Program-made: the position numbers and the translations under genes
Source: Octopus vulgaris
Lineage: Eukaryota
NCBI GenBank assembly: GCA_951406725.2
Contig: OX597815.1
Span: 206,522,001-206,586,000, forward strand
Direction: 5' to 3'
Length of the DNA stretch: 64,000 nucleotides
The notes under the pieces: model-generated
Told to the model about the DNA's origin: nothing
The model's database searches: none
Seen by the model: only the letters and a program-made list of their open reading frames with translations
Part shown: piece after piece, positions 10,833-63,480 of the stretch
How positions within the stretch are numbered: the stretch's first letter is position 1
How the letters are laid out: each line of letters begins with the position of its first letter

Positions 10833-11000
10833 ATAAGGCAAGGAATAAAGTGGAGAAGATAATTAATTGACAAACATCAGTTAGATCCATTTATTAATTA
10901 CAATCATATTAATAAATAAATAATAAATAAACAAAGAATAAATGTTTGTAAGCTGATGTTTGTTAATTAATTATCTTCTCCAATTTCTTCCTTGCCTTAT
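10833..11000. repeat. Fold-back (inverted repeat) insert adjacent to (TA)n
   Basis: ataaggcaagga...gagaagataattaa..aaacatcag pairs with ctgatgtttg.taattaattatcttctcc...ccttgccttat. Confidence 0.85.
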
Positions 11001-11134
11001 GAATTCTGGCTAAACTTTTGCTTACCTCCACACATGCCTATTATTCAATTCCACTATTGCCTTGCAAAAGTAAGCATTTGGATAAATATAGGTATACATC
11101 CAGTAGTATATTGGATATTCATTATCCCTTAGAT

Positions 11135-13988
11135 CAGGGGTCTCCAAAGTACGGCCCGCGGGCCGGATTCGGCCCGCCAAGGTTTTTAATCCGGCCCGCC
11201 GAGCTGTCCTCCAAAATTATAAAACAAATGTCGAAAAACAAGCCTTGCCGAAATCATACAAAAACAAATATACTTTACACCCCTTTTAATACGTTTGACA
11301 AATATAGTACAGCAAATAGACGCAAGACGACGCTAATTGATTTGCCATCAATTAATGTCTTTAAATTGCGCCGGCGAATTAAAAATTTATACACTAAACT
11401 TTAGTGTAAATATAGGTTCTTTTCCACTCCCCCCGTTTTAACTGACCCATCAGAACCACCATAAAATGAATTAACTTCGCTATGGAGCTACCTATCATTC
11501 ATCTTAGATAATAGGCGATTGTCAGTGAGATGGATGGTGCTGCTTACAATGAAGCAGAGATTCAATTTCTAGCTTTATTGATGTCGCAGAAAAGTCAACC
11601 TATTCCGTCAACTGTCGAGAGAGCAGATACGACAAGTATGACGTTAATAAAAGTCCCGTGCCTAGTATAATAAAAGAAGACAAATATCGATTTATCGATG
11701 TTACCTACATCTCACGAGCGATGAATAGAGAGGGTTGAGCCTGACGTTGTGTGGTGGTTTCTAATCCTGGTGCAGTCGCCAATCAGCGTGGAGTAAAGTT
11801 CGATGCGCATTCCGTCAGTCAGCACAGACTTGGCGTTTTCGTTGTGCACAAGTGTGAGTCATTTGTCGTCGTCGCTGCCGAAGTGAATGCACGTATCGAG
11901 TGACCTGTGAATATTGTTTTTACTTGTTTCGTCCTTTTACATATATCGTCGAGCAAAATCTGTCGACCCATGGTAAAAATGTTAGCTCAAGGAAGAAAAC
12001 GAAAAATCGACTCTGAGTGTAGAGTTTTTAAGGAACAATGGAACATAGACTATTTTGTCATAGAGTCAAACAACAAGGCACTATGCGTTATATGCACCGA
12101 CACAATTGCAGTACTTAAAGAGTACAACATTCGGAGACATTATGAAAAAAAGCATTCATCACAGTACTACCAATTCATTGGACAGCTACGTAAAGAGAAA
12201 TTTGACAAATTAAAGAAGAATTTATCATCAATGCAGTTTGTTTTCAAGAAGAAGGCTGTAGAAAAAGAGAGAGCAACAAGAGCAAGCTTCCATGTTGCTA
12301 ACCTTTTGGCGAAGAAAGGTAAGCCATTTACAGATGGTGAACTTATTAAAAAGTGCTTGAATGAGGTAGCTAAGGAAATGTGTCCAGAAAACGTAGATTT
12401 ATTTTCCGCAATTAGTCTTTCTGCGAACACTGTTGCTCGTAGGGTTGAACATATTGAAAGAAATATTAAATCACAGCTAAAAGACAAAGCCAGCAAGTTT
12501 GTATGCTTTTCTGTTGCACTTGATGAGTCAATTGATGTATCAGACACATCCCAATTGTTATTGTTCATCAGAGGAATAAATGCCAATTTTGAGATTACTG
12601 AGGAACTTGTATCTGTGCACAGCATGCATGGAACAACAACAGGCATAGATATTTTTAGAGAAGTGGAAAAGTCAGTGGCTGAGTATAATTTGGAATGGAA
12701 AAAACTAAAATGCATAACAACAGATGGTGGCAGAAATATGTGTGGAACCAAAAAGGGCTTAGTTGGGCAAATTAACAAAGTAATTGAGAATTCCGGTGGA
12801 TTGAAACCTTTGGTATTGCATTGTATTCTTCATCAGCAAGCACTGTGTGGAAAGCATCTTGATTTATCATCTGTATTAGATCCTGTGATTTCCACTGTTA
12901 ACTACATAAGATCTCATGGACTCAAACATCGCCAATTTCGTGATTTCTTGGAGGAAATGAATGCTGAGTTTCCAGACCTACCTTACTATACTTCAGTAAG
13001 ATGGCTTAGCTATGGAAAAATTCTGGCTAGATTTTTTGAGCTTCGAACTGAAATTGAAATATTTTTAAATGAGAAAAACCATTCACAGGTGTTGCTCAAA
13101 GACAGTGAATGGCTCTGGAAATTAGCATTTTCAGCCGATTTAACTATGCATCTCAATGATTTCAACCTACGGATACAAGGTGAAACTTCACTCATCTGTG
13201 ATTTGTACTCAAAGGTGAAAGCTTTTCGTAAGAAATTAATACTATTTGAAAGTCAGTTAACAAGAAGCTGCTTTACTCATTTTTCACGATGTGACAAATA
13301 TAGACAGGAAGCTGCCACTCCATTTCCAAACTTGTTTGCTCAAGATGTCATTTTAGCTTTGAAACAACAGTTTGAAGAACGTTTTTCTGATCTTGATGCA
13401 TGTTCTTCAAAACTAAGAAATTTTGAAAATCCATTTAACTCTGTTATTGGAGACTTACCTTCTGAGTTACAAATGGAAGTTATTGATTTGCAATCCAATG
13501 ACATCCTGAAGGACAAATATAAAGAGGGAAATTTGATTGAATTCTACAAATGCCTTCCATCCGACCAATTTCTTCATTTAAGGAGGTTTGCCTGTGAATT
13601 CATTTCAGTTTTTGGCACCACATATTTGTGTGAGAAGACTTTTTCAAAGATGAAATACACAAAATCCTGCTACAGATCACAATCGTCTGATGAACATTTA
13701 AATGCATTGCTTGTTATTGGAACCACTCATTTTGAACCTCAGTTGGACAAAATTTTGTCAGAAATGAAACAATTTCATGTTTCCCCTATTGATCAAAGTT
13801 AAAAAAAACATGTTAATTGTTACTGATATTATATACATTGTGATTATGTACTGAATAAATAACCATTTTTAATTATTAATTCACTATTTATTTATATTTT
13901 GGTAAAATAAATAATTTAGAACCTTGGCCCCCGTAGCTTTAAAAATTCAGCAATGTGGCCCTCCGCTGGAAAACTTTGGAGACCCCTG
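11135..13988 (+). mobile_element. Full-length hAT transposon (Buster/Charlie group), 2,854 bp
   Basis: Perfect 16-bp TIRs CAGGGGTCTCCAAAGT / ACTTTGGAGACCCCTG. Perfect 8-bp TSD ccttagat (11127-11134, 13989-13996) with central TA, typical of Buster elements. Subterminal GGCCC repeats at both ends. Confidence 0.97.
11970..13802 (+). CDS. hAT transposase, 610 aa from the first ATG (SPIN/OC1/GTF2IRD2-like)
   Basis: Uninterrupted ORF. NLS RKRK; BED finger CVIC...RRHYEKKH; catalytic D (ALDES), D (TTDGG) and E (LCEKTFS); CxxH (HCILH); VRWLS; C-terminal hATC dimerisation region. Confidence 0.95.
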   Translation: MVKMLAQGRKRKIDSECRVFKEQWNIDYFVIESNNKALCVICTDTIAVLKEYNIRRHYEKKHSSQYYQFIGQLRKEKFDKLKKNLSSMQFVFKKKAVEKERATRASFHVANLLAKKGKPFTDGELIKKCLNEVAKEMCPENVDLFSAISLSANTVARRVEHIERNIKSQLKDKASKFVCFSVALDESIDVSDTSQLLLFIRGINANFEITEELVSVHSMHGTTTGIDIFREVEKSVAEYNLEWKKLKCITTDGGRNMCGTKKGLVGQINKVIENSGGLKPLVLHCILHQQALCGKHLDLSSVLDPVISTVNYIRSHGLKHRQFRDFLEEMNAEFPDLPYYTSVRWLSYGKILARFFELRTEIEIFLNEKNHSQVLLKDSEWLWKLAFSADLTMHLNDFNLRIQGETSLICDLYSKVKAFRKKLILFESQLTRSCFTHFSRCDKYRQEAATPFPNLFAQDVILALKQQFEERFSDLDACSSKLRNFENPFNSVIGDLPSELQMEVIDLQSNDILKDKYKEGNLIEFYKCLPSDQFLHLRRFACEFISVFGTTYLCEKTFSKMKYTKSCYRSQSSDEHLNALLVIGTTHFEPQLDKILSEMKQFHVSPIDQS

Positions 13989-14128
13989 CCTTAGATGGTT
14001 GTCTAACCTCTAACTCATATATATATATATATATATATATATATATATATATATATATGTGTGTGTGTGTGTGTGTGTGTGTGTGTGTGTGTGTGTGCGT
14101 GTGTGTGTGTGTGTGTGTGTCTATTTAT

Positions 14129-62164: not shown

Positions 62165-62645
62165 GCTGCTTCAGATGTCAAGTGTTAACTGTGAAAGTGT
62201 AGTACAATCGTTTTGCTTTGGAATGGTAAAACTTAATACAAAGTTTTAAACTTACAACACTTTTTCATAATAACAAGGAATATATATACACACACATATG
62301 TATATATAGGTGCACTCATACGTTTATATCAATGTACGTATGAGTACACGAATATATATATATATATATATATATATATATATATGAAAATAGTAATGCA
62401 ATACGAAAGTATTGCTTTCCAGTAAAAGATAGCCCGTAAGGGTAAAATTATACATATAAAAGTAAATAAATGGTACAACGAAGTACCGATATTTACTGGA
62501 AAATAGCGATCGTAATAAATACGACGCTATTGTATAGCTTCACTGCGTATGTACTAGTAAAGACGTGTGTGTGCAACAAACGTGAAAAAAAATTGTCTTA
62601 CCTCTAGGAAGAACATCTGAAAAATGAAAAACTTAGAAACGGATA

Positions 62646-62716
62646 ATGCAGTACCGGTTTCAGACTCTTCAAATACGTTTGACAACGTAGATTTGATTTG
62701 TCCTCATCAGCTGCAT
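62646..62716 (-). ncRNA. Type I minimal hammerhead ribozyme, canonical core
   Basis: Minus strand augcag-CUGAUGA-GGAC...ucaaau.uacguu(guca)aacguauuuga...GUCU-GAAA-CCGG-UA-cugcau; palindromic ACCGGU stem III; GUA site. Confidence 0.8.
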
Positions 62717-63480
62717 ATACCTCGACAAAATTTCATTTATTTACTTTTATATATATATATATATATATATATATATATATATATATATATATATATGTAT
62801 ATATGTATGTATATATATGTATATATATATATATATATATATATATATATATATATGTATATATGTATGTATATATATGCATATATATATATACATATAT
62901 ATAAGTATATATGTTATATATATATAAATATATATATATACATATTTACGCATAGTCCCTATAAAGATGTCGTACACACTACATACACACACACACACAC
63001 ACTACATATATATATATATATGTGTGTGTGTGTGTGTGTGTGTGTGTGTGTGTGTATCAGGGTCGCATTAAGACCCATAGAGACCTTAAGCACTTAAAAA
63101 ATGTTGCTGTCCTCTTTATATGTAATTCAAAATATTATCAATAAACCATAGAATAAATTTTTATTTTTCAAAATGATTCGAAACTCACAGGAAAGCGGAA
63201 AATGATATTTAATTTTGTACACTTCCACCCCATATTAGAAAAATTTTCTCCTCCTTTTCTTAATTACAAAGTTTTTGATCAGATCCTCACTTGTGACATT
63301 ATGAACACTTCGAAATTCTATTTCCGATCATATAAACCGCTTCGAATATTATTTTTGCAAGTTTAAAATGATTCCTTTTGTGCCGTAAACTATTTACGAT
63401 TTATGTGGTGCCTCCGCTCCCCATGATACCCTAAGGACGTGCTTATTTTGCTTAACGGTTAATCCATCGCATATATATGC

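Follow-up and report, generated by a model that had tools for sequence, protein, structure and literature searches.

A 64,000-nucleotide stretch of the Octopus vulgaris genome (assembly GCA_951406725.2, contig OX597815.1, positions 206,522,001 to 206,586,000 of the forward strand; called the window below) contains a series of short non-coding inserts built around long hairpins, and our analysis indicates that most of them are probably short, dead integration products of several unrelated families of Penelope-like elements (PLEs). An earlier note, made from the sequence alone, had described at least nine such inserts as a family and as a candidate PLE-driven element system. A masked self-BLAST gave no sequence match of any of the nine to another and so did not confirm a family, and the architecture of the inserts is that of PLE insertions already published (PMC3846280, PMC8557442, PMC11167929, PMC4209133), not that of a candidate new system. 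The set is likely a mixture of PLE stubs, a folded-back repeat resembling a short interspersed nuclear element (SINE) and possible miniature inverted-repeat transposable elements (MITEs), not a single non-coding element system.

The masked window has 20 local inverted-repeat centres, with none in each of 20 block shuffles, and a long inverted repeat is present at all nine listed coordinates (arms of 49-238 aligned nt, 87-100% identity at aligned columns), which bears out the existence of the hairpins. The layout claimed for them, in which the hairpin lies flush at one end and a unique segment forms a tail on one side, clearly applies to six of the nine (10833, 25053, 25583, 28858, 48505 and 54683; tails of 47-165 nt), whereas 55677 and 60028 are symmetric and tail-less, and 61385 may have a one-sided tail. 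Most inserts do abut (TA)n/(CA)n as stated, namely seven out of nine, with 60028 adjoining (AG)n/(CT)n and 54683 no microsatellite; in the inserts flanked by (TA)n/(CA)n target site duplications (TSDs) are unreadable. Polarity is head to head in all five inserts with an independent strand marker, the marker being a hammerhead in 25053, 25583 and 54683, a weak GIY-YIG reading in a further fold-back, 32206, and a SINE in 55677. The nine inserts are as follows.

10829-11134, plus strand (from the tail side only): insert 10833; hairpin at 10829-11004 flush with (TA)n, then the tail, which is split by a hAT element and continues at 13997-14016, followed by (TA)n; no hammerhead.
24970-25246, minus strand: insert 25053; head-to-head arms at about 25050-25124 and 25175-25249 (96%), flush with (TA)n, and a left tail of about 85 nt; the 3' half of a minus-strand hammerhead is intact in both arms, its degenerate 5' core lies in the loop.
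25582-25860, plus strand: insert 25583; head-to-head hairpin at 25582-25694 (90%), flush with (CA)n, and a tail of about 165 nt; the 3' half of a plus-strand hammerhead is in both arms, a second degenerate hammerhead in the tail near 25750-25795.
28856-29090, plus strand: insert 28858; hairpin at 28853-28990 flush with (TA)n, then a tail of about 100 nt and (TA)n.
48455-48793, minus strand (from the tail side only): insert 48505; hairpin at 48502-48793 (90%), 4 nt off (TA)n, with a 47-nt tail on the left side, then (TA)n; no hammerhead.
54618-54961, minus strand: insert 54683; sense pseudo-long terminal repeat (pLTR) end plus tail running from 54826 to 54618, and an inverted tail-less copy at 54827-54961.
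55677-56028, no strand: insert 55677; symmetric head-to-head fold-back built from a SINE-like repeat, with (TA)n directly at either end; no hammerhead.
60026-60240, no strand: insert 60028; symmetric hairpin (87%) with (AG)n at the left and (CT)n at the right end; no hammerhead.
61386-62163, no strand: insert 61385; outer arms at 61387-61495 and 62054-62162 (93%), no hammerhead; an inner element at 61552-62012 has 86-nt arms (99%) and TA on both sides.

At 54683 the anatomy, the TSD, the abundance of copies, the fixed end, the variable joints and the continuation of an open reading frame (ORF) are directly observed. For this, 54300-55015 was compared with contigs from four public runs, which represent three coded organisms; among the runs listed none is on record as RNA, and run X15, presumed to be RNA, was left out of the evidence. 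In run X1 the summed contig depth, which is a sign of abundance and no copy number, is about 53 in the flank, whereas most bins inside 54683 have 2e5-4e6 and most left-arm bins exceed 1e6; the family is present in very high copy. Loose contig ends are found at 54617-54619 (256, 292, 202 and 24 contigs in the four runs), with mixed, AT-rich flanks among the rows listed, beyond which there are 1368 more. Eleven of the best 15 of 300 joints lead from the left arm or the loop to the right arm at differing places, eight of these being present in both X1 and X4, with depths mostly of 55-220; no empty-site joint was among the best 15. Two joint rows carry additional upstream sense sequence between their sides, so that they are not simple deletions of the copy in the window. 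Since the loose ends pile up at one place and the joints are scattered, one end is fixed in the 54683 family, the one family tested, and its inversion points vary, as the earlier note had predicted. An exact 11-bp TSD (54607-54617 and 54960-54970) agrees with the contig-derived ends. Beyond 54826, 54, 61 and 6 contigs of three runs continue into a common stretch of about 22 nt and then into AT-rich sequence, indicating that a solo unit of about 230 nt is common.

On the tail-bearing strand of 54683 an ATG at 54710 opens 31 codons that run up to the end of the element. The peptide matches the Octopus gene models P0003 (O. sinensis) and P0004 (O. bimaculoides), both of which have this ATG as first codon and share about 150 further residues with 86% identity, demonstrating that a longer parent ORF exists. 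The fixed end of 54683 is located about 94 nt into this ORF, and the ATG about 55 nt downstream of the predicted hammerhead cleavage site.

The mechanism that we propose follows the work on the Poseidon PLE PAc of Anolis carolinensis (Frangieh et al. 2024, PMC11167929). The purified PAc protein cuts and extends both strands of AT-rich DNA, and reverse transcription has two start sites, located about 111-118 nt inside the ORF, with the sequence between them becoming the tail; hammerhead cleavage is dispensable (PMC11167929). By analogy, an octopus PLE protein would cut both strands of AT-rich or (TA)n DNA and reverse transcription would begin at two close sites within the start of the PLE's own ORF, for 54683 at about +94 and about +29. 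Each target end would prime one cDNA, the distal start giving a cDNA with the tail and the proximal start one without it. Both cDNAs would head for the 5' end of the RNA, halt after 50-200 nt and be joined head to head via microhomology, resulting in an insert that has the hairpin directly at one end, the tail at the opposite one and a pLTR hammerhead carried in each arm as a passenger. Copying up to the RNA 5' end from one target end alone would give a solo unit without hairpin, like the form of about 230 nt in the 54683 family, and 62646 and 59661 (see below) are probably such units. Alternatively, a single cDNA might snap back at a short palindrome and prime itself (PMC3846280), which would lead to the same product and could account for a recurrent junction at 54826/54827; the data do not separate the two routes. 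We infer that the hammerhead-less inserts would also be of PLE origin, that priming would be two-ended and that the continuing ORF would encode the reverse transcriptase.

This anatomy closely resembles that of Pen2a_Av of Adineta vaga (Arkhipova et al. 2013, PMC3846280), where a direct pLTR with a one-sided tail of 31 bp adjoins an inverted, shorter and overlapping pLTR head to head, with palindromes at the junction and a TSD of 8-10 bp. In both cases the pLTR plus tail spans the first codons of the ORF, TSDs are similar (about 9-10 bp there) and solo pLTRs occur. The octopus inserts differ in that they are ends only, without an ORF body, with tails of 47-165 nt, a TSD of 11 bp and a location mostly in microsatellites. 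An inverted truncated pLTR, a one-sided tail, overlap with the ORF start and a TSD of 8-10 bp are also described in PMC8557442. Like in PAc (PMC11167929), the hammerhead lies just upstream of or at the ORF start, the element ends about 100 nt into the ORF (about 94 in 54683, start of reverse transcription at 111-118 in PAc), the tail lies between two end points and targets are AT-rich; unlike in PAc, where the ATG is at stem II, the ATG of 54683 is about 55 nt downstream of the cleavage site. Pairs of minimal hammerheads on opposite strands 100-700 bp apart have been attributed to truncated PLEs (Cervera and De la Pena 2014, PMC4209133). As to the targets, the published Naiads, which target (TA)n, include entries from two Octopus species (Naiad_Obim and Naiad_Ovul; Craig et al. 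2021, PMC8557442), and our inserts are likened to Naiad and Hydra PLEs, which insert into (TA)n, by description and not by sequence. Canonical hammerheads are lacking in Naiads (PMC8557442) and likewise in 10833, 48505 and 61385. Motif searches in the available parts of the supplement texts of PMC8557442 and PMC13282606 gave no sequence match.

The earlier note had also considered the inserts as retrozyme-like. Non-LTR retrozymes are proposed PLE derivatives (Cervera and De la Pena 2020, PMC7229834) and share with the octopus inserts the short non-coding unit (150-450 bp there) and the type I hammerhead (PMC7229834; Li et al., bioRxiv 10.64898/2026.07.22.740005). Retrozymes, however, form head-to-tail tandems that contain two complete motifs or more, whereas the octopus inserts are single or head to head. 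The strict scan of the window and the relaxed scan of 17 segments found no tandem with two complete hammerheads on the same strand, which speaks against this part of the proposal; the closest case is the decayed repeat of about 216 nt at 47022. The further features to which we refer are:

32206-32632, plus strand: head-to-head fold-back, arms of 158 nt (89%), right tail of about 75 nt, then (TG)n.
32968-33600, plus strand: relic of a decayed C-terminal PLE ORF part (linker plus GIY-YIG).
46873-47249, plus strand: insert 47022; complete type I hammerhead at 47022-47113 within a decayed head-to-tail repeat of about 216 nt.
59559-59772, minus strand: insert 59661 between two (TA)n tracts, without hairpin.
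61036-61344, plus strand: unfolded copy of the SINE-like repeat with (TG)n on one side and (TA)n on the other.
62386-62747, minus strand: insert 62646 between two (TA)n tracts, without hairpin; complete type I hammerhead at 62646-62716.

Hammerheads were searched for with a strict type I descriptor that accepts any Watson-Crick pair at positions 3-8. The whole window yielded four motifs (47027+, 54767-, 54840+ and 62652-) whereas 300 shuffles averaged 0.15 motifs and never gave more than 2. Hence the hairpin insert 54683 has one complete hammerhead in each arm (54767-, 54840+), and 47022 and 62646, which lack the long hairpin, have one complete motif each. A relaxed scan of 17 segments brought in 25053 and 25583, whose motifs are degenerate (100 shuffles, p=0.02 for either insert, uncorrected), and left twelve segments without motif, among them 10833, 28858, 48505, 55677, 60028, 61385 and 59661. 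Among the nine hairpin inserts hammerheads are thus complete in 54683 and degenerate in 25053 and 25583, and among the hairpin-less inserts the claim stands for 47022 and 62646, while 59661 drops out: the hammerhead likeness of 59661 and 28858 is by eye, both have at least two core or stem defects and both fail the scan, the minimal-hammerhead-like motif near 59665-59700 having two defects and lying within background. A match to Rfam HH9 at 62629-62729 scored 23.9 bits, below the gathering score of 52. In 47022 the second unit of the tandem ends after the 5' core, and the repeat score of 83 compares with a maximum of 80 in 200 shuffles, in AT-rich sequence. The view that the inserts are end products of several PLE families has good support at 54683 and reasonable support at 25053, 25583, 62646 and 47022; of the others, 55677 is SINE-like and the inner 61385 element resembles an element with terminal inverted repeats (TIRs).

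The 54683 hammerhead has a G3-C8 core, an extra nucleotide ahead of helix II and a palindromic helix III, and no variant at core positions 3 and 8 was present among the best 40 of 115 variant rows. When the motif is folded alone, helices I and II are predicted to form (z about -2), but the predicted fold of the complete insert hides it inside the long hairpin. Minimal hammerheads as published cleave poorly and require dimers or protein (PMC4209133, PMC11167929). Since each hammerhead of a fold-back copy would be buried in this way, it is doubtful that these inserts seed the genome with self-cleaving motifs, as had been suggested. In the literature that we found the G3-C8 core is an engineered variant: in PAc it is a double mutant with partial activity (PMC11167929), whereas it is natural in 54683, and for minimal hammerheads of metazoan PLEs a U3-A8 core variant is reported (PMC4209133). 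Judged by titles and the starts of abstracts among the matches listed, we found no publication on octopus PLE hammerheads. A study by Lunse et al. from 2016 on PLE hammerhead variants may already report natural G3-C8 cores.

Insert 55677 has the geometry of a PLE stub, built from a SINE-like repeat. It consists of the 3' two-thirds of the repeat duplicated head to head, with a deletion of about 80 nt in the left arm, and its arms are more similar to each other (96%) than to the copy at 61036 (88%). The 3' end of the unfolded copy at 61036-61344 is identical in position to that of both 55677 arms, both ends of 55677 halt at the same base in (TA)n, and a short microhomology is present at the junction. 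As (TA)n is identical on both strands, any reverse transcriptase might, in principle, prime two times from a single RNA end here. The repeat occurs at four loci of the window (2469, 8987, 55677 and 61036) with a common body and 5' truncation, the copies at 2469 and 8987 carrying another 3' half than those at 55677 and 61036. By eye, 61036-61100 contains tRNA-like A and B boxes; ARAGORN reported 0 genes and Rfam no tRNA match. Another inverted repeat, 39936-40235, was rejected as fold-back: it is a SINE inserted in reverse orientation into a related SINE, with a duplication of about 18 nt (39798-40235).

Insert 61385 is likely nested, with outer arms around an inner element, 61552-62012, that looks like a TA-flanked TIR element; the difference in arm divergence (1/86 versus 8/109) is not significant (Fisher p=0.08). 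Two further elements, 46671-46766 and 47954-48196, have the properties of MITEs, i.e. symmetric ends, related termini and 9-bp TSDs (9/9 and 8/9 bp), and we take them to be Mutator-like from the TSD length. The relaxed scan found no hammerhead in either.

Two GIY-YIG relics of PLEs had been reported for the window, one of them folded back. The relic at 32968-33593 is 47% identical to P0001 across 190 aa (tblastn E 2e-44); P0001 looks like the C-terminal portion of a PLE ORF, has a sub-threshold match to Pfam GIY-YIG (E 0.014) and belongs, as we assume, to the Penelope/Poseidon clade. By this homology 32968-33593 is confirmed as a PLE-type GIY-YIG relic, which is without link to any hairpin. 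In the fold-back at 32206-32557 a GIY-YIG-like motif can be recognised by eye, based on what we take to be the GIY-YIG pattern; it faces outward on both arms and stops inside the domain. In the ESM Atlas this relic hit one cluster, 17% of whose members carry GIY-YIG (score 0.90), and it had no match in 1.84 billion representatives, in a word-indexed search, in Pfam or to P0001, so that a folded-back GIY-YIG relic is weakly supported at this site. A Pfam search of the 349 stop-to-stop frames of at least 48 aa in the window gave neither GIY-YIG nor reverse transcriptase.

Several observations weigh against PLE stubs as explanation of most inserts. No ORF encoding a reverse transcriptase and no endonuclease linked to any hairpin was found, and the parent ORF of 54683 (P0003 residues 1-194, P0004) had no family match in Pfam, PHROGs, PDB or ESM Atlas. 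P0003 is moreover chimeric, about 190 residues of this ORF being joined to a PRMT3-like methyltransferase domain, and is probably a mis-joined gene model. The comparison with other copies covers one of the nine listed inserts, six of the nine are without a scoring hammerhead, tails of 47-165 nt exceed the published 30-40 nt, and 55677, 60028 and the inner 61385 element are symmetric and tail-less. The joints rest on short-read contigs, matched at 80% likeness and with 21-49 nt on either side, and part of them may reflect loop deletions that happened afterwards. Finally, the junction 54826/54827 is crossed by 7 of the 32 listed contig pieces, three of them with 0-2 gaps, and this repetition suggests that the folded-back form may itself have spread.

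The last point leads to the alternative, which is the retrozyme-like view of the earlier note, that part of the folded-back or solo units are genuine non-autonomous elements that form families of their own, being re-transcribed and mobilised anew by PLE protein. The common unit of about 230 nt with its two preferred ends (54, 61 and 6 contigs of three runs), the shared fold-back junction, the location of 47022 in a decayed tandem of about 216 nt and the published non-autonomous PLE derivatives (PMC8557442; bioRxiv 10.64898/2026.07.22.740005) would all be consistent with this, as would one contig row of run X4 (organism B) that joins 54953 back to 54832 at a depth of 1587.5, which hints at hammerhead segments arrayed head to tail. 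A solo unit with two fixed ends is, however, also expected from internal initiation of reverse transcription on RNA started in the pLTR, the tandem hint is a single contig row, the window has no tandem with two complete hammerheads, and the numerous differing joints favour a fold-back formed anew at each insertion, so that we regard this alternative as unlikely. To a broader scenario we assign an equally low probability: the octopus PLE machinery would move non-PLE passengers and would have spawned short elements of its own, namely a PLE-driven, tRNA-headed SINE subfamily with a swapped 3' half (61036, 55677) that enters (TA)n by two-ended priming, and, in the 54683 family, which ranks among the most abundant octopus repeats, a self-propagating solo pLTR of about 230 nt with a natural G3-C8 hammerhead and tandem arrays in a related species.

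A DNA-level origin, in which forks stall or break at (TA)n and the nascent strand of any sequence folds at inverted microhomology, copies itself and rejoins at the self-complementary (TA)n, would agree with the (TA)n/(CA)n next to seven of the nine inserts, with the symmetric cases including the SINE-like 55677 and the short microhomology at its junction, and with the arms of 60028 and 61385 taking in flanking microsatellite. It is even less probable than a re-mobilised element, as 54683 is high-copy, has a fixed end and no microsatellite, and carries a clean TSD of 11 bp around tail and hairpin together, and as hammerheads are strongly enriched in the arms and polarity is head to head in 5/5. 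The earlier note had argued from asymmetry against ordinary MITEs, here in the sense of DNA transposon derivatives targeting TA or microsatellites, and this argument carries for the six inserts that do not combine symmetric TIRs at both ends with a TSD of fixed length. The inner 61385 element (86-nt arms, 99%, TA on both sides) and perhaps 60028 do fit a MITE, and genuine MITE-like elements with 9-bp TSDs are present in the window (46671, 47954), but the latter two are without hammerhead, and in 54683 the tail is one-sided, the joints vary and an ORF begins. While it is plausible that one or two inserts are MITEs, this is very improbable for the whole set. That the hairpins are artefacts of assembly or of long-read fold-back is hardly conceivable: no contig spans 54300-55015 as a whole and the arms of 28858 differ by indels alone, but the arms of every other measured hairpin show 1-13% substitutions, three DNA-type runs have contigs that read across a hairpin junction of the 54683 family, and at the 54683 locus the left flank-to-tail junction is covered in two runs and the TSD is exact.

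If most inserts are indeed PLE stubs, this is of value for annotation, as such stubs are easily misfiled as MITEs or unclassified SINEs, and 54683 would be a clean natural example from a mollusc of the internal-initiation model of the tail. Two leads deserve attention, the folded-back SINE and the natural G3-C8 core; as the core is found in a very abundant family, it could readily show whether cleavage is what PLE hammerheads are retained for. We know of no PLE-driven SINE, and a dependence of the 61036/55677 repeat on PLE protein, if true, would therefore matter more. Cephalopods show heavy A-to-I editing, for which abundant hairpins, if transcribed, could supply double-stranded RNA, and this would likewise add to the importance of the inserts.

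The window has a GC content of 35% and abundant microsatellites. PLEs make up 6.83% of the O. vulgaris genome in 190 families (PMC13282606 supplement), so that about 4 kb of PLE-derived sequence are expected per 64-kb window. When viral, prokaryote, plasmid and metagenome collections were searched for further copies or complete PLEs, the outcome was either no match or a chance one (L001-L004 unrelated). Rfam gave 418 matches to the whole window, the best 150 of which are all microRNA models below the gathering score and mostly on microsatellites.

The remaining observations concern neighbouring elements and a gene. The hAT transposon within the tail of 10833 (11135-13988) has intact ends, an exact 8-bp TSD and an unbroken 632-aa frame (11904-13802) with a Spin-doc zinc finger and a hAT dimerisation domain in Pfam, and looks young. 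Following a (CA)n tract, 26155-26175 matches about 20 nt of the left arm of 25583 and is possibly a second remnant of this family. On the left side of 54683 lies a separate, moderately repeated element (54300-54419) related to 27275-27411. The decayed repeat at 57376-58097 has direct copies of 72% and inverted copies of 68% identity, the layout of an old direct-plus-inverted unit. Relics of Tc1/mariner transposases are located at 36436-37108 and 58827-59084, and exons of a cyclin gene lie on the minus strand at 44700-44990 and 42821-43114 (Pfam Cyclin_N E 2e-17, Cyclin_C E 0.006).

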